Origin: Planctomycetota bacterium | GTDB lineage: Bacteria > Planctomycetota > Phycisphaerae > Phycisphaerales > Phycisphaeraceae | Length of the DNA: 64,000 nucleotides | Direction: 5' to 3' | Assembly: GCA_024279275.1 (NCBI GenBank) | Contig: JAJRRS010000128.1 | Coordinates: 2,121-66,120, forward strand | In this document: one piece after another, positions 7,645 to 64,000 of the stretch | Numbering within the stretch: position 1 is the stretch's first letter | How the letters are laid out: each line of letters starts with the position of its first letter | Notes under the pieces: generated by a model | The model's input: only the letters and a program-made list of their open reading frames with translations | Databases searched by the model: none | What the model was told of the DNA's origin: nothing | Translations under genes and position numbers: made by a program

Positions 7645-8988
7645 ATGAGAAAGACCGACAAGCCGATCATTGCCCTCACCGCCGTACTGATCCTCATCCT
7701 CACCGCCGCCCTTCTCATCAAAGCCGCCCCCACCTCCACCCCCAACGCCGCCCCTGAGCAACGCGAAGGCTCGGATATCCCCTCCCCCACATCATCAATC
7801 ATAAATCAAAAATCAGAAATCTCCCCCCCCTCCACCACCCTCGCCCCCAACGCCGTCCGCGGCGTCAACTACGCCCACATCCACCGCAACAACAAAGGCT
7901 ACGGCTCGGACGCCTCCAAACGCGAACTCACCAACCTACAAAACCTCGGCATCGACTGGATCGCAATCACACCCTTCGGCTACCAAAGCTCCGCCGACCA
8001 AAACCAGATCGCAGGCTACGACCCCAACCAACCCCTCTCCGCGTTTACCACAACCCCTCCCCCGTTTAGCCCGGTCGCCCGCGACCGGTCCCCTTCCCCA
8101 CTTCATCAATCAGCACTCACACATCAAACCTCCCCCCGCCCCTCCTCCACATCAGCACTCAGCACTCACACCTCAGCACTCACCCCCCGCCCCGGCCAAG
8201 ACCGCTCACTCACCGACCGCCACCTCGCCGAGCAAGTCGCCGCCGCACACCGGCTCGGCGTCAAAGTCCTCATCAAGCCTCACATCTGGTCACGCGACTT
8301 CTGGAACGGCGACGCCTGGCACGGCACCATCGAACAAAACTCACCCAAAGACCACGAATCCTGGCGAAAATCCTACCTACGATTCATCCTGCACCACGCA
8401 CAACTCGCCCAAGACACAAACGCCGAAGCTCTATGCATCGGCACCGAACTCATCAGCCAGACCACCCACCACCCCGACGACTGGCTCACACTCATACGCG
8501 AAGTCAAAAAAATCTACTCTGGCAAACTCACCTACGCCGCACACTGGGATCAGGAGTTCCAGGCCATCACCTTCTGGGACCAACTCGACGCCATCGGCAT
8601 CAGCGCCTACTTCCCACTGGATGCACCCGACAACGCAACCGTCAAACAACTCGTCGATGCCTGGCAACCTCACAAAAAACGGATCGAAGCGGCACACACC
8701 CTCTACAACAAGCCCGTCGTCTTCCTGGAAATAGGCTACCGCCCCGCCACAGGCACCTACCGCCAACCCTGGCTCGACCGCGGCGGCCAACCCGATCCCA
8801 TCGCACAGGCACGCGCCTACGAAGCCCTCTTCCAAACCTACGCCGACGAACCCTGGTGGCACGGCCTGTTCATCTGGAAAGTCTTCACCGACGCCCAAAG
8901 AAGCGATCACCACGGTACCGGCCCCGGCTACTCCTTCAGAAACCAACCCGCCGAGCAAGTCATCCAACAATGGTTCCGCCAACCCTGA
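7645..8988 (+). CDS. Membrane-anchored TIM-barrel glycoside-hydrolase-like protein (clan GH-A / GH113-like) carrying in-frame repeat insertions
   Basis: N-terminal TM helix, then GVNYAHIH..GYGS, WIAITPFGYQ, VLIKPHIW, CIGTELI, LTYAAHWDQE and FLEIGY motifs. The family assignment is by recollection only. Confidence 0.6.
   Translation: MRKTDKPIIALTAVLILILTAALLIKAAPTSTPNAAPEQREGSDIPSPTSSIINQKSEISPPSTTLAPNAVRGVNYAHIHRNNKGYGSDASKRELTNLQNLGIDWIAITPFGYQSSADQNQIAGYDPNQPLSAFTTTPPPFSPVARDRSPSPLHQSALTHQTSPRPSSTSALSTHTSALTPRPGQDRSLTDRHLAEQVAAAHRLGVKVLIKPHIWSRDFWNGDAWHGTIEQNSPKDHESWRKSYLRFILHHAQLAQDTNAEALCIGTELISQTTHHPDDWLTLIREVKKIYSGKLTYAAHWDQEFQAITFWDQLDAIGISAYFPLDAPDNATVKQLVDAWQPHKKRIEAAHTLYNKPVVFLEIGYRPATGTYRQPWLDRGGQPDPIAQARAYEALFQTYADEPWWHGLFIWKVFTDAQRSDHHGTGPGYSFRNQPAEQVIQQWFRQP
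7744..7821 (+). repeat. Module A variant (7744-7782) plus heptad module D (7788-7821) inside the CDS
   Basis: AACGCCGCCCCTGAGCAACGCGAAGGCTCGGATATCCCC and CACATCATCAATCATAAATCAAAAATCAGAAATC translate in frame as NAAPEQREGSDIPSPTSSIINQKSEI. Confidence 0.85.
8051..8200 (+). repeat. Module C REP (8064-8088) plus D-type heptads (8098-8192) inside the CDS
   Basis: GTTTAGCCCGGTCGCCCGCGACCGG followed by CAGCACT heptads translates in frame as PFSPVARDRSPSPLHQSALTHQTSPRPSSTSALSTHTSALTP. Confidence 0.85.
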
Positions 8989-9398
8989 TACGCACCCCCA
9001 ACCACCCATCATCCAACACAATATCAATCCCCCCCCCAACGCCGCCCCTGATCGCAGCAAAGCGGCGGGTATCCCCACCCTCCTCAGAACCCTCCCCCGT
9101 TTAGCCCGGTCGCCCGCGACCGGCTCCCCCCTCCCCCACGAAGCGCCGCGACTTGTCGCGCTCCCCCATCCCCACCCCACGCACCCACTCCACGCTTGCG
9201 GTTTAGCGCCCCTCTTCACCCCAGCACGCAAACCCCTCCCCCTCCCCACATCATCAATCAGCAACCGCAGGTCCGCGAAGCGAAATCACAATTCATACAT
9301 CTCCCCCCACCCCCTCCTCACCTCAGCAATCAGCACTCACACCTCAGACCTCCCCCACTTGGCCCAACCCCCCTCCCCCCGCTAGACTGATACACACC
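8989..9398 (+). repeat. Mosaic repeat cluster: A 9038-9076, C 9099-9123, B 9137-9160, an extra GTTTAGC at 9201, D-type heptads 9246-9350
   Basis: Each module matches copies in the 13.1, 15.0-15.8 and 16.8-17.7 kb clusters. Confidence 0.85.
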
Positions 9399-9471
9399 GG
9401 CCCTGTAGCCCAATGGCAGAGGCACGCGACTTAAAATCGCGCCAGTGTGGGTTCGAGTCCCACCAGGGCCA
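9399..9471 (+). tRNA. tRNA, 73 nt, class I cloverleaf, anticodon UAA by manual fold (isotype uncertain)
   Basis: Acceptor GGCCCTG/CAGGGCC, D arm GCC..GGC with GG in the loop, anticodon stem CGCGA/TCGCG with loop CTTAAAA, 5-nt variable region, T arm GTGGG-TTCGAGT-CCCAC, discriminator A. CCA is not encoded. Confidence 0.75.
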
Positions 9472-9580
9472 TTCACCTCCTTATGCCAATCCCGAACAGA
9501 ACTCGTACGTCAGCGGAATCCCCTCCCCGAACCGTTCACCGATATCCGCCAACCTCCGATATCCGTCAACCCAGGCCCGA

Positions 9581-9621
9581 CGTTTAGCGGCGGATCGCAG
9601 ATCCACGCGTTGGCCTAACGG
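9581..9621 (+). repeat. REP-like module J, second copy
   Basis: CGTTTAGCGGCGGATCGCAGATCCACGCGTTGGCCTAACGG, compared with 1347-1388. Confidence 0.85.
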
Positions 9622-9890
9622 GACAATCGCCCCCCCCCACATAACGTGTGTCCGGGGGCAACCGCAAAAGATTTAACGGGATTGGCATTAAAGCCTTGTC
9701 GATTCAAGACGCACCCATCAGACGTCCGATAATGTTTGCTCGCGGCAGGCTTGCCTATCTTCACACCCCAAGAACTTTGCCAAATAATATTTTCACTCAT
9801 ATCTTAATTGATAACAAGTGGTTATATGACTTTTGCACGCCCAACAACCCCTTCTTTCCCATCATGGGGGGTGTAATTTCAGAGAAAGGG

Positions 9891-9898
9891 TGTATAAT
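9891..9898 (+). promoter_or_regulatory. Candidate extended -10 promoter element TGTATAAT
   Basis: A perfect TGnTATAAT lies 70 nt upstream of the ATG at 9969, in an AT-rich stretch. No clear -35 element is present. Confidence 0.25.
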
Positions 9899-9968
9899 TC
9901 ACCTGTTGTAAAAGGAGGGGACTTCGCATCCGTAAACTCTATTAGCGTGGAGTGAAGGAGAAGTCCTG

Positions 9969-10859
9969 ATGACTGGTCAAATTAGTGCCCCACGGTCGCG
10001 CAATAGCTGCGTCCGTACCCTGTCGCTCACTGCGGCAATTCTCACAACCGGATTCTTAACGGCCAACGCCGCGCAAGCGGATGTCTATGGCTTTGAGTGG
10101 GATCGCCCCGCCGTATTCGACGGCAATGCCGGGCCTATCTATGTCAGTGATGAAGCAGGTGTCATCACCAGTATCACCACCCAATACAACTCTGACACCC
10201 AGAGCCTCTCCTTCGTCGCCGCCTTCGAGCCAGAACCCGGCACGGGCCAACTCCCCGTCGGCTTCTTCCTCGTTCTCAACAACGGCCCGATGCCCATCGG
10301 CATGGACGGCGAGTTCGCCATCCTGTACTTCGATGCCATCACCGGCGCCGCACCCACCGTCACCGCCTACGCCTACAACGGCGAAAACGGTGCAGACTCC
10401 TTCTTCGACGGGGCCGCAGCACCCGGCAACCAGGCTCCCGACCCCATCGTCTCATCGATCAACGACCCCTCCTTTGTTACCGCCGCCTCCAGCGTCGATG
10501 GCCCAGGCGGACGCGTCCTCTCCTTCACCATCGACACCACCGCCATCAACGCACACAACCCGCTCTACGGCAACGCCGTAGACTGGCAAGGCATCGGCTT
10601 CGATGAAAACATCGGCGTCTGGTTCCACCCCTACTCGAACTTGAACCCAGCCTACGGCCAAGACGGCTTCCTCCTACCCGACCCCTCCGGCGCAAGCTGG
10701 CTCACCTGGGGCCAATACCCCGACCAGGGCGAACAGTTCCACGGCTGGCTCGACGCGACCAACCAGCAATCCAACGTACTCATCCCTGAACCCGCCAGCC
10801 TCACCCTGATCGGCCTGGGCGCCATCGCACTCACAACCAGAGGCCGTCGCAACGCATAA
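9969..10859 (+). CDS. PEP-CTERM sorting-domain secreted protein, function unknown
   Basis: Signal peptide (LTAAILTTGFLTANAAQA). The C-terminus is IPEPASLTLIGLGAIALTTRGRRNA. Confidence 0.75.
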   Translation: MTGQISAPRSRNSCVRTLSLTAAILTTGFLTANAAQADVYGFEWDRPAVFDGNAGPIYVSDEAGVITSITTQYNSDTQSLSFVAAFEPEPGTGQLPVGFFLVLNNGPMPIGMDGEFAILYFDAITGAAPTVTAYAYNGENGADSFFDGAAAPGNQAPDPIVSSINDPSFVTAASSVDGPGGRVLSFTIDTTAINAHNPLYGNAVDWQGIGFDENIGVWFHPYSNLNPAYGQDGFLLPDPSGASWLTWGQYPDQGEQFHGWLDATNQQSNVLIPEPASLTLIGLGAIALTTRGRRNA

Positions 10860-11293: not shown

Positions 11294-11327
11294 TTCGTTG
11301 TTTTATGGGTCCAAAACCCGTATTAAG

Positions 11328-11400
11328 TGGAGCTGACAGGGATCGAACCTGCGACCTTCTGTATGCCATACAGACGCTCTCCCAACTGAGCTACAGCCCC
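11328..11400 (-). tRNA. tRNA-Ala (anticodon GGC)
   Basis: The reverse complement is GGGGCTGTAGCTCAGTTGGGAGAGCGTCTGTATGGCATACAGAAGGTCGCAGGTTCGATCCCTGTCAGCTCCA. It has the G3:U70 Ala identity pair and anticodon loop ATGGCAT. Confidence 0.92.
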
Positions 11401-13131: not shown

Positions 13132-13474
13132 GCCCCCATCCCCCCTCAACCTCATCACCAACTCCCAACGCCGCCCCCTGAGCGCAGCGAAGGGGCGGAT
13201 CTCGCCTCCAAAACACTCTCTCCTGACCTTCCCCCACGAAGCGCCGCGACTTGTCGCGTCCCCTCTCCCCCATTTAGCCCGGTCGCTCGCGACCGGCTCC
13301 CCTCCCCACATCATAAATCGGGGCCTCTGAATAACCTCGGCGGAGGCTGATTTAGCAGCCGTGATTGCACGGAATCACACTCACTGAAGGGTTATTCAGA
13401 GATCCCAATCATCAATCACACATCATAAATCCCCCTCCTCCCCCCTCAAATACACATCGCTTTTAGCCGAACCT
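13132..13474 (+). repeat. Mosaic repeat cluster: A 13167-13202, B 13235-13258, C variant 13272-13296, D 13305-13320 and 13405-13435, unique 12-bp inverted repeat 13325-13336/13389-13400
   Basis: Module matches to the other clusters. The inverted-repeat arms are CTCTGAATAACC and GGTTATTCAGAG. Confidence 0.8.
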
Positions 13475-15037: not shown

Positions 15038-15773
15038 CCCCATCTTCACCTGACACCACCACCCCAAAGCCGCAGGCTGCGAAGCTGCCGCGGATCTCCC
15101 CACGTTTCTCCCTCACCATCTCCCCCCTCCTAACGCCGCCCCTGAGCGCAGCGAAGATGCGGGTATCCCCCCACCACCAAAATACTGACCTTCCCCACGA
15201 AACGCCGCAACGTGTCGCGTCCCCCCTCCCCCGTTTAGCCCGGTCGCCCGCGACCGGCTCCCCTCCTCACATCATCAATCATAAATCAACAACCATAGGC
15301 CACCGAAGCTAAATCATAAATCCCCCTCCCCCACGAAACGCCGCGCCCCGGCACGCCTTTCCCTATTCCAAATCTGCGTCATCTGCGCAATCTGCGGACA
15401 CCTCCCCCTCCCCTCTTCACATCAGCAATCATAAATCACAATTCATACCTCCCCCTCCCCACATCAGCACTCAGCAATCACACATCAGCACTCCCCCCCC
15501 ACCCCCAACGCCGCCCCTGAGCGCAGCGAAGGGACGGGTATCCCCCCACCCCCGTTTACCTCAATCACTCACGCCCTGCCACGCCTTTCCCTATTCCAAA
15601 TCTGCGTCATCTGCGCAATCTGCGGACACATCCCCTCCCCACATCAGCAATCATAAATCACAATTCATACCTCCCCTCCCCCTCCTCACCTCAGCACTCA
15701 GCAACCGCAACTCCGCAAAGCGATATCTTCTCTCCACCGTGCAACTCCCTCCCACATCGCTACACTGTCCGCC
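15038..15773 (+). repeat. Largest mosaic repeat array: A 15132-15170 and 15507-15546, B 15196-15219 and partial 15332-15345, C 15233-15257, E 15351-15401 and 15580-15629, many D heptads
   Basis: A 735-bp gene-free interval composed almost entirely of modules separated by C-rich CCCCTCCCC linkers. It contains an internal ~100-bp duplication (15352-15454 vs 15580-15675). Confidence 0.9.
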
Positions 15774-17647: not shown

Positions 17648-17725
17648 CTCTTATCTTTCTCACCGCCGCCTGGGACACCCTTCCCTCACCTCAGCAATCA
17701 GCACTCACACATCAGACCTCACCCC
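17593..17725 (+). repeat. Partial C, full C (17623-17647) and D heptads (17686-17725)
   Basis: The D module supplies the last four codons and the stop of the minus-strand CDS 17712..18329. Confidence 0.8.
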
Positions 17726-19509: not shown

Positions 19510-20970
19510 TTACCGCTTGATCGTCCCCAGATCAACCACCACCCCGCCGGGCTGATAATAGTCCACCCCCAACGTATCACGATCCAGAAACGTAAACACC
19601 ACCGCACTCGCCCGCAGCCGCTCCACGAATCCCAGATCCCCCGCACCAGGCCCCGCATACGAAGCATTATTAAACTGCTGTGCATGGAAATGATAATGAG
19701 CAAGCCCCGTATACATCCGTCGGATCAGCGCGTCAGACGAATAAAACTTCAGATCATGCAAACGAATCTCCGGCGGATACGCCAATGCAACAACCCGTCC
19801 ACCCTCACCAACCAACACCCCCCCATGCTCCGATGTCCTGTCAACCAAATCCCGATCCGCCTGCATGAACAACCCCGCCACCAACGCACGATCCGCCAAC
19901 GCATCAAGCAAGAGTTCGATCGTCATCAGGTCAGCGAAACACAACGACTCAGCATGGTCCGCCAAGGATTCCGAGGGCAACCCCAACGCAGCCCCCACCT
20001 CGGTACGAACCGTCCCCTGCCCAGGACCAATCAACCCTGCAACACGCGACAACAGCATGCCCTTACTCAACCCCGGGTCCGAAATACCAGCCATCATGAC
20101 CGTCGGCAGATGCCGCAGCTCAAGCCCCTCCCGCTGCTTGTCCGTCAACCGCCCAGCCGACCGCTGGGCACGCTCCCAATATGCCCCACCCGACTGGCTA
20201 CGTACCTGCATCAACCAAAGCACCGCCTCGCGATTCACCGGCAAAACGCTCAACCAACGCGCCGCCTTAAGATCAAGAATCACCGGCTCCCGCGAATCCA
20301 TCCCCAACAACAACCCCCGCGCCTGATCAGCACCCACCAGCCGATGCATCAAAACCCACGCATCCACTCGCGCCGCCGTCGTAACCGTTTCATCGTCACT
20401 GACGAACACCTCCCACACCGCCTGCTCAACCGTTACCCCCGGGTTCAGCGCCTCGATCGCCGCACGTTCCGGGGGAACCGGGGGAACCGGGGGAACCGGG
20501 GGAGCCGGGGGAGCCGGGGGAGCCGGGGGTTGATCGTCTGTGTAAAATCGCGATTGTTGTGCGTAGCTGCGCACCAGCGCCACCGTGAAACCCGGGTCGC
20601 CATGCTCCACCGCACGATCTATCAAGAGCTTTCGCACCGCCAAGAGATCAACCTCTCGAAGGTGTTCCCGCGCAGCAGCCCAAAACGCATCCTGATCGTA
20701 TTCAATCAGCCGATCCATCGACCACAACCGCAACGCCGTCGGCTGAGCATCCGACCACAGCACACGGTACATCACCGCCACCGCACGCCGAGCATCGGGC
20801 AGGTCAGACAGATTGCCTAATTGCTTCGCCGCCGCCAGACGCCGGCCCGGGTCTCTATCACGATCGAGCATCACCGCCAGCGGATCGGCCACGGGCGTCG
20901 GCCCACAACCCGACAGGGAGGCTAACAATGCTATTGAAACCACCAACCACCCGACAACTTGCTTCATCAC
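19510..20970 (-). CDS. Lipoprotein with a diverged JAB/MPN (JAMM)-like C-terminal domain
   Basis: MMKQVVGWLVVSIALLASLSGC lipobox. The C-terminus has SEHGGVLVG ... HYHFHAQQFNNAS...GAGD, which resembles but does not exactly match E..HxHx7Sx2D. Confidence 0.55.
   Translation of the reverse strand: MMKQVVGWLVVSIALLASLSGCGPTPVADPLAVMLDRDRDPGRRLAAAKQLGNLSDLPDARRAVAVMYRVLWSDAQPTALRLWSMDRLIEYDQDAFWAAAREHLREVDLLAVRKLLIDRAVEHGDPGFTVALVRSYAQQSRFYTDDQPPAPPAPPAPPVPPVPPVPPERAAIEALNPGVTVEQAVWEVFVSDDETVTTAARVDAWVLMHRLVGADQARGLLLGMDSREPVILDLKAARWLSVLPVNREAVLWLMQVRSQSGGAYWERAQRSAGRLTDKQREGLELRHLPTVMMAGISDPGLSKGMLLSRVAGLIGPGQGTVRTEVGAALGLPSESLADHAESLCFADLMTIELLLDALADRALVAGLFMQADRDLVDRTSEHGGVLVGEGGRVVALAYPPEIRLHDLKFYSSDALIRRMYTGLAHYHFHAQQFNNASYAGPGAGDLGFVERLRASAVVFTFLDRDTLGVDYYQPGGVVVDLGTIKR
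20469..20529 (+). repeat. 9-bp tandem repeat: CCGGGGGAA x3 then CCGGGGGAG x3 (+ partial), inside the CDS
   Basis: It encodes PPAPPAPPAPPVPPVPPVPP on the minus strand. The DNA unit is the same as at 41382-41413. Confidence 0.9.
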
Positions 20971-58048: not shown

Positions 58049-59714
58049 CTTCTTCCTGGGTCTGCTGTGTCAGGGGTAGGTCCGTCAACTCGACGGGGAT
58101 CTGGACCCGGGTGCTGGCGGCGTCGATCAGGATTGCGATCGACAGTGGGAGCTGGGGTCGGCCGGGGATCATGATCTCCATTTGTTGAACATCTGAGCCG
58201 CCGTACTCCGACTGAAGATAGGTTGGCCAGGGTTGGCCTTGCTTGTCGAAGACTTGTATCTCTTTCACGATGGCATCTTGTGATTCGAAGCTTAAGGAAA
58301 GGGTCAGGCCCGGTCCCTGGAACTGGGCACCGCTTATTTGCAGGGTTGTTCCGGTCTCGCGTAGTGCCGGGTGGTCGATGTTGTCTTCATCATCATCCCT
58401 ATAGAACGTGTCATCGTCCTGATCCGCTATGGTTTTTACGGCGTTGGGGAGTTTGATGACCCTTGGCGATCCGCCGTACAGGGCGTTGATCGATCCGGAG
58501 AGAGTCTTGAGGTGGGTTGCGGTGATGTCGGGCGTGTCGAATTGGATGGTGAGGTAGTGGTCGACCTGTTCTGTGTTTTTGGGTTTGTTTTCTTCGCCGT
58601 ACCAGCCGTAGTTTTCGTTCAGGTCGTACCTGTTTCCGTATCGGGAATACTCGTCTTCATCGGATGGGACGAGTTCATTGCCTTGGTTATCAGTTACGGT
58701 TTCAAGCTCGAACTTACCCCACCGAAGCGGCTCAAGCTCCTTGGGGAGCGAAACGACCGCGACAACAATCCCGATGTTATCACCGCCCCAGCCTCGACCG
58801 GTGTAGTTGCTCGTGCGTTTGATCAATACCGCCAACGGGGTCGCCTGGGCCTCGGCCAGGACACGTTGAGAATCGATAGCTGGGGAGGCTTGATTGTTAG
58901 TGCCGCCCTCGGCGAGAGAATCAAAATCGCCCAGATCCAGGCGTGTGGGTGTGACCGGTGTGAAGGAGATTCCTTCGTTAGAGCAGCTCGCGGTCATCAC
59001 CTGTTGAAGCTGTGTTAAGAATGCCTCGGGGGTATCGGAATCTTCGCGTGCGATCTTCCAGACGGCGGTTGAGCCTTCGGATTGTGCGGATTCGTCGGCG
59101 GTCAATTCGCCGGGCAGAGTCAGCGTGAAAGTGGCCTTGAACTTGTCTTCAATTTCCTGGATTTGCTTCTGATCGAATGACATCATACCCATGGTCATGG
59201 CCGATTCGTCATCCTCTTCATCAAGGGCGCCGGCGAACGCGGCGATTCCCTGGAGGCCGCTACGGCTTTTGACCGTGAGCCGACCGGTGGTCTTGTCGGA
59301 TTCGATCGCCAACGAACGGGCCTTGGCGTAGGGGGTTTCCAAGAGGTCGTTGATAGCCTTGAACGACACGGTGATAGTAGACGTGATGGTGCCGTCGGCT
59401 TGCTCGGTTTGTTCTTCGATGGTGAACCCGTCGCCGGGGAACAGGACGGTCGCGGCGTCGGTATTCATGGGGGGATACATCAGCGTCGGGGCCTCCTGCA
59501 TCATCCCCCCATACATATCCAGGCCCTCGATTGTTTCGTTCATGGTGGTCTGGATCACGACGGTGCCGCTGCCATCAGCGTTGATCGTCAGGTGGTCGCT
59601 GACACTGGTACACCCAACAAGCGACAGACCCATCGCGGCGAAGAGGGTCACAAGCAGGTACAGGCGGGTGGGAAACATGGGGTACGTCCTTTCGGCAAAT
59701 ATCGATCCGGTCAT
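58041..59714 (-). CDS. Hypothetical lipoprotein
   Basis: The lipobox is LSLVGC. There is an ATGA overlap with the upstream HEAT-repeat gene and an 8-nt overlap with the downstream paralog. An alternative start lies at 59678. Confidence 0.65.
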   Translation of the reverse strand: MTGSIFAERTYPMFPTRLYLLVTLFAAMGLSLVGCTSVSDHLTINADGSGTVVIQTTMNETIEGLDMYGGMMQEAPTLMYPPMNTDAATVLFPGDGFTIEEQTEQADGTITSTITVSFKAINDLLETPYAKARSLAIESDKTTGRLTVKSRSGLQGIAAFAGALDEEDDESAMTMGMMSFDQKQIQEIEDKFKATFTLTLPGELTADESAQSEGSTAVWKIAREDSDTPEAFLTQLQQVMTASCSNEGISFTPVTPTRLDLGDFDSLAEGGTNNQASPAIDSQRVLAEAQATPLAVLIKRTSNYTGRGWGGDNIGIVVAVVSLPKELEPLRWGKFELETVTDNQGNELVPSDEDEYSRYGNRYDLNENYGWYGEENKPKNTEQVDHYLTIQFDTPDITATHLKTLSGSINALYGGSPRVIKLPNAVKTIADQDDDTFYRDDDEDNIDHPALRETGTTLQISGAQFQGPGLTLSLSFESQDAIVKEIQVFDKQGQPWPTYLQSEYGGSDVQQMEIMIPGRPQLPLSIAILIDAASTRVQIPVELTDLPLTQQTQEEGE

Positions 59715-62700
59715 CGGGTCATCTCCCGCATCTTCACGTTGATTTTACGGCGGAGGGCACGGGCTTCGGTGCCGCGTACACCCCTGAGCCAATTCAATAA
59801 TTTCCGCATCTCGTATTCGCTGTCCACCTGGAGCATCTCTTGGCGCAGGGGTTCCAGGAAGCGTTCGTCTTTGGTCAGCAGCAATGCAACGAGCAGGATG
59901 CCGGGGACTTCCTGGCGGTTGCCGGCATTCCATACTTCCAGACGTTTTTCCAGGCCTGAGAAGTCGCCGTACTGCGCTAAGGTCAGAGCGATGATGTCTG
60001 AAGTGTTTGCATCTTCGATTTGTGTTTCGGCGAGTGATTTCAAGGCTGGGAGGAAGTCTGGTTGTCGATCAATCACGTGGGGCGGGCGCGTGTCACGGCG
60101 GCTGTTCCAGGAGCGCTTGATGCGCGTTTTGTCGTAAACGAACTGAGAATCGGACGGTGGGAGGTCGGCGGCTAAGCGTAATGGGGCGGCCAAGACACCC
60201 GCTGCGGCGGCGGCACCGACGTCCGGCGAGGGGTCGGCGATCATCGGGCCGAGCGTCGATTCGATCTGGACAGCGGTGGGTTTGGTCGCAAGATAAGCCT
60301 GAATCGCGGCGCGTCGGACCCACGGGTTATCATCGATCAAGGCGGGTTGTATGGACTCGGGGGGGAGGGTGCCGGGGCGCAAGATGGAGATAAAGATGCC
60401 TGTCGCGCGTGGGAGAGGTTGCGGTGAGGCGACCAGTTGTTTCACCAGTTCACCTGCTTGTTCATCAGTCATGGCGATGATGAGCGACGGTCTGTTGTAC
60501 TCTCCGACGACCGCGCCGAGGATCTCGTCAAGCTCGTCGTCGCGGGCGGATTCGAGGATGCGGGTAATGCGTGCCGGGTTGAGCAACACCTGTTTGACTT
60601 GGGGCTTGGCGCGATTCGAGGCGGCTAGCAATCGTGCGTAGCCCCCGGGTTCATCAGCCATCTTGTTGACCACCGCCAACCCCTCGGGCAGCGGTATGCG
60701 TGCGAGCAGGAGCGCAGCGACCAGGTCAGGGTTCATCCCGGTGGACGGATCGAACAGCCGGTCTTCGCTGACGAGCGTGGAGATAGCTGCGAATTCGGCC
60801 TTTGGATCGCCGGTGATAAACCTTGCGAACAGGTAGGCTGGGTTGGGGTGTTGCGGGGGGTGCTCCACGAGTAATTCATACCAGCGTCGGTGCATCTCCG
60901 CGATCGGGTTGGTTTGATCCGGCGAGTTGTCGGCTGGTTGAGTTGCGTTGGTGTTATCAGAGTTATCCGGTGTGTTAAACAGGGTGATGTCAACGGGATT
61001 GTCTGCATCGACACGATCAACGACAACCGCCTGGACAGGTCGTGTGCCACCGAGGTATGTCTTTATGGGGGTTGTTGAAGTAGTAGCGATGCCGGTACCG
61101 AGCGCACCGAAGTTTTTCTGTTTTTCGCCGGCGTTAGTCAGACCGTAGTGGAAGCCGACCAGTGGGACGATCATGGAAACGGCTTGGGCGCGGACCTCGC
61201 TGTCGGCATCGGCGAGTGCTGCGTCTGCGTATTCGATCGCCAGGGAGTAGGACCGTACACGCAAGACTTCTACACCGCGGCGGCGTATGGCGGGGTTATT
61301 AGAGGCCATGACATCGTTCATCAAAGGACGCCAATGCGCGTCGGCGTTGCGTTGACGGCTCTGGTTGGACATCACGGAGGCAAGGATGTCCAGCCTCACC
61401 GGGTCGCTTGAGTCGCGGTACATGGTGAGGATGCGGTCGACGGCGATGGCGTTGTCCTGCTCGAGAAGGAATTCGATGACCAACGGCCTCATCGTTTCCT
61501 GTCGAGAGACCAGAGCGAGAAGTTTGTCGACGCTGGGTTGAGCGTTCATTTCTTTTAGGGCCATGAGCGCGGACTTGACCACGAACGTATCTTCGTCCTC
61601 GAGGCTTTTTTCGAGCTTGGGCACGGCACGGCGTATCTCGAGCTTGCCCAACGCTTCGGCGGCGGCGGCTCGGACACGCCATCGCGGGTCTTGCAGCGCC
61701 TTGATTAAGACATCACCCTGCTTCACGGCCTTGGCTTCTTCCAATGCGGCGATGGCGGCGATGGCGACGACTTCATCGGAATCGTTCAGGGCCGGGGCGA
61801 GGTATTTGCCCGCATCGGGCGAGCCGGATGCGCCGAGTTGTTGGGCGGCGACCATCCGCAGGTTCGGGTCGTGGGCCTTGAGCATCGTGGCGGTTGCGGC
61901 CAAGGCGTCCTTGCCGCCCACGGTCGAGAGCGCGTGGATGGCGCTTTCACGGACGAGCGTGTCGTCGTCATTGATTAGTTCGCGCAGCGGCGGGAGGGCA
62001 ATAGCCCCGGCGGACCCGAGACGATCCGCTGCGGCCTGGCGTTGCTCACTGGTGCCGCGTGCCAGATCACGGCGGACGGCTAAGTCGGCCTCGGTGCGAT
62101 CTGGCACAAGGATCGCCCAACGCACGTCCTCGAATAGCAGGACCGCCTGGTATTCGTTCTCACGCTCGGCTCGCGCGATCGCGTTGCGCACGGTCGGGAG
62201 CGCGGCAGAGCCGGTGTCTACCAGGATCGTCATGGCGCGTGTCCTGCGGACCGGGGCGGAGGCAAATACGCCATCAATCGCGTCGTCGAGGGTGCGTTCT
62301 TCTGCGGGTGTGAGCTGACGGACGAGTTGTGGCGAGGGGAGTTTGCCTAAGTCGGCCCACCACCCGGTCAGGGCGTCGGCCTGCTTGTCGCGGTTGGCTT
62401 GAGACAGCCAAGGCTCATAGATCGGGGCGTCCGGCGCAAGGTATTTAAGCGTTTCGTATGCGGCGATCCGGGTGCCCAGGTAATGGTCGTCGAGCGCATC
62501 GATCAGGGGTGTGACCGCGTCTTCACGGTGGTCAAGCAGCGTGGCGCGGGCACGCCTTCTCATCGAGGGGTCGCGGCTGCCGAGTGACTTAACGGCGTCG
62601 GCGATGGGGTTTTTAGCACGGCCTGCGGTGCGGTTCAGCGGCAAGCCCTCCCACACACCGTCGGCAACGCGCCGCCTGGCTTGTTTAACCCACTGGATAA

Positions 62701-63103
62701 ACGCCTCCGCATCCAGCATGCCGGAGGTTCGGGAGATAATCTTGAATTCGGGTGTCATCAGCAGGAGGGTCGGGATCTGATCCACCTCGAATTTTCGGGT
62801 CCACTCAAAGCCCATATCGACTTCCATCTCGACGGTGTGCAGCAGGCCGATGCGGTCGCGGACCTGATGGTTCCAGATGACCTGCTCGCTGAGTTGATGG
62901 GATGCGGGGTCTGTCAGGGAGAAGAATACGATGAGTACAAGCGAGTTATCTTCCGCCGCAGAGAGGCGGGCGGATTTGATGCTGTAGTGAAGCTCAGGCG
63001 GGAGCGTGTTGGCCTGGCTATCCGTGTATGGGGGGGCAGGGGGCGCAGCGATGACGTAGGAAGCCATCGAAATAAACAGGGTATAAATGATGGTCCTAAT
63101 CAT
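59711..63103 (-). CDS. Large secreted HEAT-repeat protein with an N-terminal thioredoxin-fold-like domain lacking CxxC
   Basis: The ATG at 63103 gives a signal-like MIRTIIYTLFISMASYVIAAPP. HEAT/PBS-lyase-like repeats are present (DPRWRVRAAAAEALGKL, DPNLRMVAAQQLG, DDTLVRESAIHAL). The thioredoxin-like stretch is LVLIVFFSLTDPAS...IPTLLL. Confidence 0.7.
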   Translation of the reverse strand: MIRTIIYTLFISMASYVIAAPPAPPYTDSQANTLPPELHYSIKSARLSAAEDNSLVLIVFFSLTDPASHQLSEQVIWNHQVRDRIGLLHTVEMEVDMGFEWTRKFEVDQIPTLLLMTPEFKIISRTSGMLDAEAFIQWVKQARRRVADGVWEGLPLNRTAGRAKNPIADAVKSLGSRDPSMRRRARATLLDHREDAVTPLIDALDDHYLGTRIAAYETLKYLAPDAPIYEPWLSQANRDKQADALTGWWADLGKLPSPQLVRQLTPAEERTLDDAIDGVFASAPVRRTRAMTILVDTGSAALPTVRNAIARAERENEYQAVLLFEDVRWAILVPDRTEADLAVRRDLARGTSEQRQAAADRLGSAGAIALPPLRELINDDDTLVRESAIHALSTVGGKDALAATATMLKAHDPNLRMVAAQQLGASGSPDAGKYLAPALNDSDEVVAIAAIAALEEAKAVKQGDVLIKALQDPRWRVRAAAAEALGKLEIRRAVPKLEKSLEDEDTFVVKSALMALKEMNAQPSVDKLLALVSRQETMRPLVIEFLLEQDNAIAVDRILTMYRDSSDPVRLDILASVMSNQSRQRNADAHWRPLMNDVMASNNPAIRRRGVEVLRVRSYSLAIEYADAALADADSEVRAQAVSMIVPLVGFHYGLTNAGEKQKNFGALGTGIATTSTTPIKTYLGGTRPVQAVVVDRVDADNPVDITLFNTPDNSDNTNATQPADNSPDQTNPIAEMHRRWYELLVEHPPQHPNPAYLFARFITGDPKAEFAAISTLVSEDRLFDPSTGMNPDLVAALLLARIPLPEGLAVVNKMADEPGGYARLLAASNRAKPQVKQVLLNPARITRILESARDDELDEILGAVVGEYNRPSLIIAMTDEQAGELVKQLVASPQPLPRATGIFISILRPGTLPPESIQPALIDDNPWVRRAAIQAYLATKPTAVQIESTLGPMIADPSPDVGAAAAAGVLAAPLRLAADLPPSDSQFVYDKTRIKRSWNSRRDTRPPHVIDRQPDFLPALKSLAETQIEDANTSDIIALTLAQYGDFSGLEKRLEVWNAGNRQEVPGILLVALLLTKDERFLEPLRQEMLQVDSEYEMRKLLNWLRGVRGTEARALRRKINVKMREMTR

Positions 63104-64000
63104 TTCGGTTCCGTGTGGTCGATGATCGCCCAATCTTGCGAGAACGCGAAGTCGGGGTCGTGTTTGCCGTAGTGACACTGCCGGCAGTCCGTCTCCCTGC
63201 TGAGGCGTGCGATGCCTTTGCACGCACCCTTTAATAAGGCTTCGCCGGGTCCGTGACAGCTTTCACAGCCGACGTTTCCCAGGTTGGGAGTTTTTCGCAT
63301 CGATATGTAGCCGTCATTAGCGCCGTAGGCCACGACGTGGCAGACGATACACTCGGGGGATCGGTCGTAACCGGATCGTTGTAGCGACTGCATGGCGTTG
63401 GCGTGCCGCTGTGACTGCCAGTTCTGATGGACGGCTGTGTGGCATTGGATGCAGGCGTCGGACCCGACATAGCCGTTGCCCGGCTCGGCCTGGATCGGTG
63501 AAATCAGGGGTGAACCCGGGCGGTTTTCTGAGAGGTCGAAGCTGCGCCCATCGATCTGTTGTTTGTACCAATCGATCGATGCCTTGGTGACCTGGGGGTC
63601 GCCGGTGTATTGGTTATCTAACAGCACGGCGCGGCCTTGGGCTGTCACGGGTTGGCCGGGCGTTTGGATCAGTGTGATGTCGGCGATGTAGCGTGACTCG
63701 CCGTAGACCGATGCGATGATCGTGCGGTTGACAAGCGTGGGCGGGAGGCTGTCGCCGCGGCCTCGGAACAAGATAACATCTATTTCAGGGAAGCGCTGAG
63801 CGAGGTCGCGGACGCCTTGCTGGGTCAGGTCTGCGAGAACGACAATCGTATCGATGTCATCCGGGAGGTTTGCTAAGAAACGGCTGATCGCCTGATCGGG
63901 TGGATCGACTCGGAGGCTTGGGTTGATTTGCTTGTAGGCGTTGTCAACGACACCCGTCACCGCGATCCGTCGGCCGGCGGATTCGATGAGGATGTAGGTC
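63100..64000 (-). CDS. Multiheme c-type cytochrome domain fused to a metallophosphoesterase/5-prime-nucleotidase-like region (5-prime partial, runs off the window)
   Basis: Four CxxCH motifs are present: CIQCH, CIVCH, CESCH and CRQCH. The reading frame stays open from 63960 to the window end (…TYILIESAGRRIAVTGVVDNAYK). Confidence 0.7.
   Translation of the reverse strand, partial: TYILIESAGRRIAVTGVVDNAYKQINPSLRVDPPDQAISRFLANLPDDIDTIVVLADLTQQGVRDLAQRFPEIDVILFRGRGDSLPPTLVNRTIIASVYGESRYIADITLIQTPGQPVTAQGRAVLLDNQYTGDPQVTKASIDWYKQQIDGRSFDLSENRPGSPLISPIQAEPGNGYVGSDACIQCHTAVHQNWQSQRHANAMQSLQRSGYDRSPECIVCHVVAYGANDGYISMRKTPNLGNVGCESCHGPGEALLKGACKGIARLSRETDCRQCHYGKHDPDFAFSQDWAIIDHTEPK

Follow-up and report, generated by a model that had tools for sequence, protein, structure and literature searches.

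Results and Discussion

A tRNA gene with a UAA anticodon and a short variable loop

The window, that is, the whole stretch of 64,000 nucleotides of contig JAJRRS010000128.1 that was analysed, carries a 73-nt tRNA gene on its forward strand between a glycoside hydrolase gene and a gene for a PEP-CTERM protein. The tRNA gene, its parts and its neighbours are listed below.

7645-8988 (+): upstream gene, glycoside hydrolase family 113 (GH113; Pfam PF22612, E 4.7e-51)
9399-9471 (+): gene of 73 nt for a type I tRNA-Leu(UAA), with a short variable loop (ARAGORN, Rfam RF00005, family conservation and covariation)
9399-9405 (+): 5' strand of the acceptor stem, GGCCCUG, forming seven Watson-Crick pairs with 9464-9470 (CAGGGCC)
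9408-9423 (+): D arm GCCC-AAUGGCAG-AGGC, three base pairs and a C13.A22 mismatch, with A14, A15 and G18G19
9425-9441 (+): anticodon arm CGCGA-CUUAAAA-UCGCG (sequence; family pairing)
9432-9434 (+): anticodon 5'-UAA-3', followed by A37 and A38 (sequence, ARAGORN, Rfam)
9442-9446 (+): 5-nt variable loop CCAGU, whose U48 pairs with A15 (Levitt pair)
9447-9463 (+): T arm GUGGG-UUCGAGU-CCCAC, with U54, U55, C56 and A58 (sequence, Rfam, family)
9471 (+): discriminator A73 (sequence; A in 77 of 79 family members among the matches listed)
9969-10859 (+): downstream gene, PEP-CTERM protein (Pfam PF07589)
11327-11400 (-): tRNA-Ala(GGC) (ARAGORN, Rfam)

Read from 5' to 3', the tRNA is GGCCCUG-UA-GCCC-AAUGGCAG-AGGC-A-CGCGA-CUUAAAA-UCGCG-CCAGU-GUGGG-UUCGAGU-CCCAC-CAGGGCC-A, with U at position 8 and no encoded CCA. 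ARAGORN called tRNA-Leu(taa) at exactly 9399-9471 (+), with the same anticodon as the manual fold of the first-pass annotation, and Rfam RF00005 matched the gene from end to end with 62.8 bits (gathering score 29; E 2.9e-11), just 2 bits under the adjacent tRNA-Ala(GGC). The 73-nt cloverleaf drawn in that annotation, with seven Watson-Crick acceptor pairs, G18G19, the T loop UUCGAGU and A73, is borne out by the sequence and by both programs, and so are the UAA anticodon in the loop CUUAAAA on the stem CGCGA/UCGCG and the 5-nt variable region. The C13.A22 mismatch of the D stem was absent from that description. Folded as a single sequence, the tRNA has an energy of -32.9 kcal/mol (z = -3.0 as compared to shuffled sequences). 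The elements listed for LeuRS recognition of E. coli and S. coelicolor tRNA-Leu (PMC6614811) are all present, namely the core and tertiary elements U8-A14, A15-U48, G18G19/U55C56, U54-A58 and A73, and the 5-nt loop. The variable arm of a canonical type II tRNA-Leu forms a stem and is longer than 10 nt, whereas this tRNA has 5 nt; with its cloverleaf, 5-nt variable loop and leucine anticodon it belongs to the type I tRNA-Leu. A reading on the reverse strand, which would give the anticodon UUA and an ochre suppressor, was ruled out, as Rfam and ARAGORN score the forward strand only.

Genomic surroundings

Beyond the tRNA-Ala(GGC) gene lie genes for a CdsZ-like zinc-ribbon protein and then RNase H. 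Neither an integrase nor a phage gene was found among the neighbours of the tRNA-Leu gene, and no second copy of its 3' end was found in the window with up to 3 mismatches allowed; on these two results, integration of a mobile element was rejected. No LeuRS was found among the window ORFs scanned. In a Planctomycetota MAG (L011), the tRNA lies 1.2 kb from the same tRNA-Ala(GGC) and from a CdsZ-like gene that shares 63% amino-acid identity with that of the window over the stretch seen, with the tRNA-Leu inverted relative to the window. These observations speak for a gene that is native to this planctomycete lineage.

The first-pass annotation had also described a REP element (its module J) and an AT-rich stretch on the 3' side of the tRNA, and both are present. 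A 42-nt REP-like element at 9581-9622 has a 93% identical copy 8 kb away, at 1348-1389, and the GC fraction drops to 0.46-0.51 over about 9550-10000. Within the region, sigma-70-like promoter matches were found only at 9760-9805, just 5' of the gene at 9969. Since the AT-rich DNA of 9700-9968 is directly 5' of the PEP-CTERM gene and holds these matches, it is predicted to be the promoter and leader of that gene rather than a part of the tRNA.

Upstream of the tRNA, a C-rich tract (9233-9356) is built from short repeats, which recur at 8089-8176, 13299-13319, 15260-15723 and 17684-17720. The repeat modules (CCCCTCCCC..., ...CAGCAATCAGCA...) are all in the same orientation and lie in intergenic and possibly in coding DNA. 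The forward strand has a very strong C excess here, with a GC skew of -0.3 to -0.57 across 7-13 kb.

Distribution of the short-arm tRNA-Leu in bacterial genomes

Scanning a species-representative genome collection with a degenerate class I pattern that contained the loop CUUAAAA gave at least 120 loci, with a short-arm tRNA(UAA) gene fitting this looser scan pattern in at least 120 species. ARAGORN found a tRNA(taa) of 72-77 nt in essentially all of these loci, and nearly all of the genome matches listed have in common the D arm GUAGCCCAAYGGCAGAGGCA and the variable loop NCAGU. The hosts among the matches listed are mostly Actinomycetota, including Microbacterium, Arthrobacter, Clavibacter, Rhodoluna, Nonomuraea, Streptosporangium, Microbispora, Pseudonocardia, Nanopelagicaceae, Planktophila (with the complete 1.46-Mb genome of IMCC26103), Bifidobacterium, Actinomyces, Dermabacter, Acidimicrobiales and Rubrobacteraceae. 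Four of the genome matches listed are from Planctomycetota (L011, L033, L072 and L089), and one each is from a Victivallaceae MAG (L115), Armatimonadota (L043) and Candidatus Terrybacteria (L064, CPR). The closest relative among the matches listed is the copy of the Planctomycetota MAG L011, with 92% identity to the window tRNA; the best actinobacterial copies among those matches (loci L001-L120) are 86-90% identical.

Approximately one tenth of the 31-mers of 9250-9700 were found in many unrelated marine and sediment metagenomes, and this fraction equals the share of the tRNA in that stretch. Near-identical tRNAs were also found on marine metatranscriptome contigs, where the flanks differ from those of the window, and these transcripts are therefore from other organisms.

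Some of the loci have further tRNA genes that deserve mention. Plasmid unnamed1 of Streptomyces sp. NBC_00989 (L003 3053-3128 and 3497-3572; see also L050 5680-5755) carries a class-I-shaped tRNA(UAA) with a different body, which has the D arm GUAGCUCAGUGGCAGAGC and a longer variable region and adjoins a tRNA-Ile(UAU); such a plasmid-borne pair of rare-codon tRNAs might sidestep the bldA-dependent control of UUA codons. In Pseudonocardia endophytica DSM 44969 (L040 3900-3971 and 7358-7432), a partial second type I tRNA-Leu(UAA), identical to the full gene in its 3' two-thirds, lies 3.4 kb from it and looks like an att duplication from an element integrated into the type I tRNA-Leu(UAA) gene. 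The chromosome of Timonella sp. A28 (L058 3094-3167 and 4989-5064) has two near-identical type I tRNA-Leu(UAA) genes 1.9 kb apart, one of which begins with C1 instead of G1.

Phage-borne copies and the origin of the window gene

Members of the family abound on viral contigs. A viral scan in which the anticodon was left free returned at least 120 contigs (loci L184-L303), and half of the viral loci listed are arrays of at least five tRNAs. In 20 of the 21 phage arrays with both types in the stretch examined, the type I tRNA-Leu has an anticodon that is carried by no type II tRNA-Leu there. The type I genes thus fill an anticodon slot of their own in phage arrays, which argues that they are real isoacceptors and not spare copies. 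Annotated phage genes are of the same kind as the window tRNA, being class I-shaped tRNA-Leu of 75 nt with 76-79% identity to it, for example the tRNA-Leu(caa) of Streptomyces phages such as CeilingFan (75 nt, 79% identical) and the 75-nt tRNA-Leu(tag) of Mycobacterium phage Tourach, and many type I copies in IMG/VR have its exact D arm. These genes are embedded in tRNA arrays of phages, whereas the copy in the window has ordinary chromosomal surroundings.

Two metagenome contigs carry further tRNA genes of interest. Contig L176 has three tRNA-Leu genes (GAG, CAG and CAA), all of type I. On contig Ga0222664_1000159 (L180 2850-2923), ARAGORN found in a phage-like tRNA array a 74-nt tRNA of the amber-suppressor type, with the anticodon CUA and the label Pyl.

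The presence of the family on so many viral contigs, and in phages of Streptomyces and Mycobacterium, is what would be expected if the window gene were an accessory copy from a phage or mobile element, redundant with a long-arm tRNA-Leu(UAA) elsewhere in the genome and outside the core set; the 88-90% identity to actinobacterial copies also makes a transfer between phyla conceivable. We consider such an origin improbable, however. The window has no integrase, no phage gene and no att-like duplicate of the tRNA 3' end, and the composition around 9399-9471 is typical of the window. Furthermore, a related planctomycete (L011) has the tRNA in a partly conserved neighbourhood, and the occurrence of the family in three further planctomycete genomes and in the Victivallaceae MAG points to vertical inheritance. 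Even in phage arrays, the type I genes take their own anticodon slot instead of duplicating a type II gene.

Amino-acid identity

The first-pass annotation had regarded the charged amino acid as not obvious and the anticodon arm as Phe-like. Neither view is supported by the company that this tRNA body keeps. In scans of the anticodon spectrum, which fixed only the D arm and the T loop and left the anticodon free, all 60 loci returned from metagenomes had leucine anticodons (UAA 41, CAA 10, UAG 9). Among the viral matches listed, 120 of 121 had leucine anticodons and all six were covered (UAA 64, UAG 23, CAA 22, GAG 5, AAG 3, CAG 3). The sole exception among them, on IMG/VR contig L296 (813-886), is a tRNA-Asn(GUU) that belongs to a phage tRNA array and has U1 and G73 at its acceptor end, which is typical of Asn; as it has the D arm of type I tRNA-Leu, this arm is not a strictly Leu-specific signature. 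A body found with every leucine anticodon, and with practically no other, is expected for a synthetase that ignores the anticodon, as LeuRS does, and such a spectrum is the opposite of what PheRS, LysRS or TrpRS would permit.

The architecture of the tRNA agrees with this assignment. Among approximately 500 tRNAs of all isotypes at the loci listed, the type I Leu D arm is near only that of other type I tRNA-Leu, with a median score of 17 within this group, as opposed to a score of at most 8 against 11 tRNA-Phe. A tRNA-Phe has G34-A35-A36 on a Phe-type body, and position 34 is U in the window tRNA.

The codons also read as leucine. UUA occurs 64 times in the long ORFs of the window (3.5 per 1000 codons) and UUG 241 times (13 per 1000). 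When a HEAT-repeat gene (59714-63223, -) was aligned with 27 homologs of 31-66% identity, 43% of the homolog residues at its 8 UUA sites and 53% at its 16 UUG sites were Leu, as compared to 54% at CUG and 62% at CUC, and Phe was not enriched at the UUA and UUG sites among these homologs. Two near-invariant Leu columns of the alignment, 466 and 1042, are UUA codons in the window gene. In this small sample, the aligned sequences give no hint of recoding. A separate 486-aa ORF (19510-20970, -) has no Pfam match and contains 30 UUG codons, far above any other ORF of the window; it may be in the wrong strand or frame, or it may be a gene with unusual codon usage.

Taken together, three independent lines of sequence evidence, that is, the anticodon spectrum of the body, its architecture and the codon side, point to leucine. 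Another reading is that a tRNA of other identity (Phe-, Lys- or Trp-like) has gained a UAA anticodon and inserts a residue other than leucine at UUA and UUG. The A35-A36-A37-A38 context is common to tRNA-Phe, and bacterial tRNAs in which body and anticodon disagree are known in Streptomyces. Nevertheless, we regard mischarging or recoding of this kind as highly unlikely here. A mistranslating tRNA would show a mismatch between body and anticodon, whereas both indicate leucine in this case; the same body occurs with all six leucine anticodons and essentially no others among the matches listed; its D arm scores far from those of tRNA-Phe, tRNA-Lys and tRNA-Trp; and UUA and UUG align with Leu, not Phe, in homologs. 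A Phe-, Lys- or Trp-like origin was rejected on the anticodon spectrum, the D-arm comparison and the codon alignment. In addition, A14, A15:U48 and A73, which belong to the identity set of E. coli tRNA-Leu (PMC6614811), are all present.

Conservation and covariation

Conservation was assessed in 79 unique 73-nt family members among the matches listed. All seven acceptor pairs are paired in at least 99% of these members, with 3-6 pair types each, and the five pairs of the anticodon stem in 97-100%, with up to 7 pair types; for the acceptor, anticodon and T stems together, pairing is 97-100% with 2-7 Watson-Crick or G-U types per pair. The D arm is invariant in 79 of 79 members listed, as is its C13.A22 mismatch. 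Because the search patterns prescribed the anticodon loop, the T loop and parts of the D arm, the constancy of these segments carries no information, but the invariance of the D arm extends to positions that the pattern left free. Such pattern-free positions are nearly invariant among the 79 members listed, namely C12, C13, A15, the run C20-A-G-A, A46 and G47, and the variable loop has the consensus NCAGU. U48, also free in the pattern, is present in 79 of 79, and A73, outside the pattern, in 77 of 79. Of the 157 unique type I Leu genes among the matches listed, 146 have the Levitt pair A15:U48, and in the planctomycete copy L033 this pair is altered on both sides to G15:C48. Stems kept by compensatory change over the family are those of a presumably functional gene and not of a pseudogene.

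The lack of an encoded CCA and of a sigma-70-like promoter in the 300 nt upstream might suggest that the gene is decaying into a pseudogene or that a tRNA-like element serves a non-translational role (integration target, regulator, or amino-acid donor for cell-wall or natural-product synthesis), but with a perfect cloverleaf, every tertiary-interaction nucleotide intact, stems maintained by compensatory change across the family, a promoter scan limited to one promoter type and no tRNA-dependent transferase gene adjoining the tRNA, this reading is very unlikely, and many bacterial tRNA genes do not encode CCA.

Comparison with known leucine tRNAs

The statement of the first-pass annotation that all known bacterial tRNA-Leu are of class II is incorrect. 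A bacterial type I tRNA-Leu has been described and assayed by Fan, Huang, Ji and Wang (2019, Nucleic Acids Res 47:6369; PMC6614811), and this was the only study found among the papers searched for the distribution of type I tRNA-Leu. S. coelicolor contains five tRNA-Leu isoacceptors: four of type II and, as the only one of type I, tRNA-Leu(CAA), whose variable loop A44-C45-A46-G47-C48 is 5 nt long (PMC6614811). A single LeuRS (ScoLeuRS) leucylates both types, with a kcat/Km for type I (6.25 s-1 uM-1) that is about half of that for type II (14.2 s-1 uM-1), whereas the type I tRNA is not a substrate of E. coli LeuRS (PMC6614811). U8-A14, C74 and a loop of 5 nt are important for type I charging, for which the enzyme needs a specific region of its leucine-specific domain (LSD), and the type I body with its anticodon changed to UAA can substitute for the bldA tRNA in vivo (PMC6614811).

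The window tRNA resembles S. coelicolor tRNA-Leu(CAA) in its 5-nt loop (CCAGU here, ACAGC there, with a common CAG core), in U8-A14, G18G19/U55C56, U54-A58 and A73, and in decoding a UUR codon. They differ in the anticodon (UAA here, CAA there), in the host (a planctomycete and an actinomycete, respectively) and in the end of the loop, which is C48 in S. coelicolor and U48, together with A15, in the family of the window tRNA. Homology to the assayed tRNA is suggested by the shared architecture and by members of the family that have a CAA anticodon. In Actinomycetota, the short-arm tRNA-Leu(UAA) has an identical D arm and anticodon loop, the NCAGU pattern, the same T loop and A73, although its acceptor stem is typically GCCCCCG, as opposed to GGCCCUG in the window tRNA, and CCA is encoded in many of its copies but not in the window gene.

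The type II tRNA-Leu(UAA), such as E. coli leuZ and Streptomyces bldA, shares with the window tRNA the anticodon and the codon assignment, A73, A14, A15-U48 and the D-loop layout A14 A15 Y16 (N17) G18 G19 Y20 A G, then A22, but its variable arm forms a stem and is longer than 10 nt, where the window tRNA has 5 nt. The animal mitochondrial tRNA-Leu(UUR) is likewise a class I tRNA-Leu with a UAA anticodon; unlike the window tRNA, it is organellar, structurally relaxed and divergent in sequence. Human mitochondrial tRNA-Leu(UUR) is not charged by ScoLeuRS (PMC6614811), and the identity sets of the two therefore differ.

Proposed function and implications

In all probability, the gene at 9399-9471 is a functional type I tRNA-Leu(UAA) that is charged by LeuRS and reads UUA, and probably UUG, as leucine. 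The transcript would undergo end processing and CCA addition, and the CCA-ended tRNA would then be charged with leucine by the LeuRS of the cell, an enzyme that does not read the anticodon. In normal translation, the charged tRNA would insert leucine at UUA codons and, through wobble, probably also at UUG codons. We infer the leucylation step from the published work on S. coelicolor.

This is a normal leucine tRNA with no sign of a change in the genetic code or of deliberate mistranslation. Its kind is already known and widespread, and what is mildly new is its presence in a planctomycete and nothing else. It is also tempting to speculate, although we would hold this slightly more doubtful than probable, that the gene is the sole UUA reader in this and other PVC bacteria, which would lack a long-arm tRNA-Leu(UAA), and that their LeuRS either adapted independently of that of Streptomyces or that features of tRNA and LeuRS were exchanged with Actinomycetota. 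If this is true, then with the family present in at least 120 species and on at least 120 viral contigs, type I tRNA-Leu would be a mainstream bacterial design across phyla and not, as the literature pictures it, a rarity confined to some Streptomyces.

A modest correction to the textbook picture follows in any case: short-arm tRNA-Leu occurs beyond mitochondria and a few Streptomyces, and its UAA isoacceptor, which has a single, highly conserved D arm, is found through the Actinomycetota and also in Planctomycetota, Victivallaceae, Armatimonadota and a CPR bacterium, and is abundant in phage arrays. Annotation pipelines and readers that flag a class I tRNA with a leucine anticodon as odd will continue to raise false alarms. 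The distribution of the family offers a comparative handle on how LeuRS recognizes a tRNA without the long arm.
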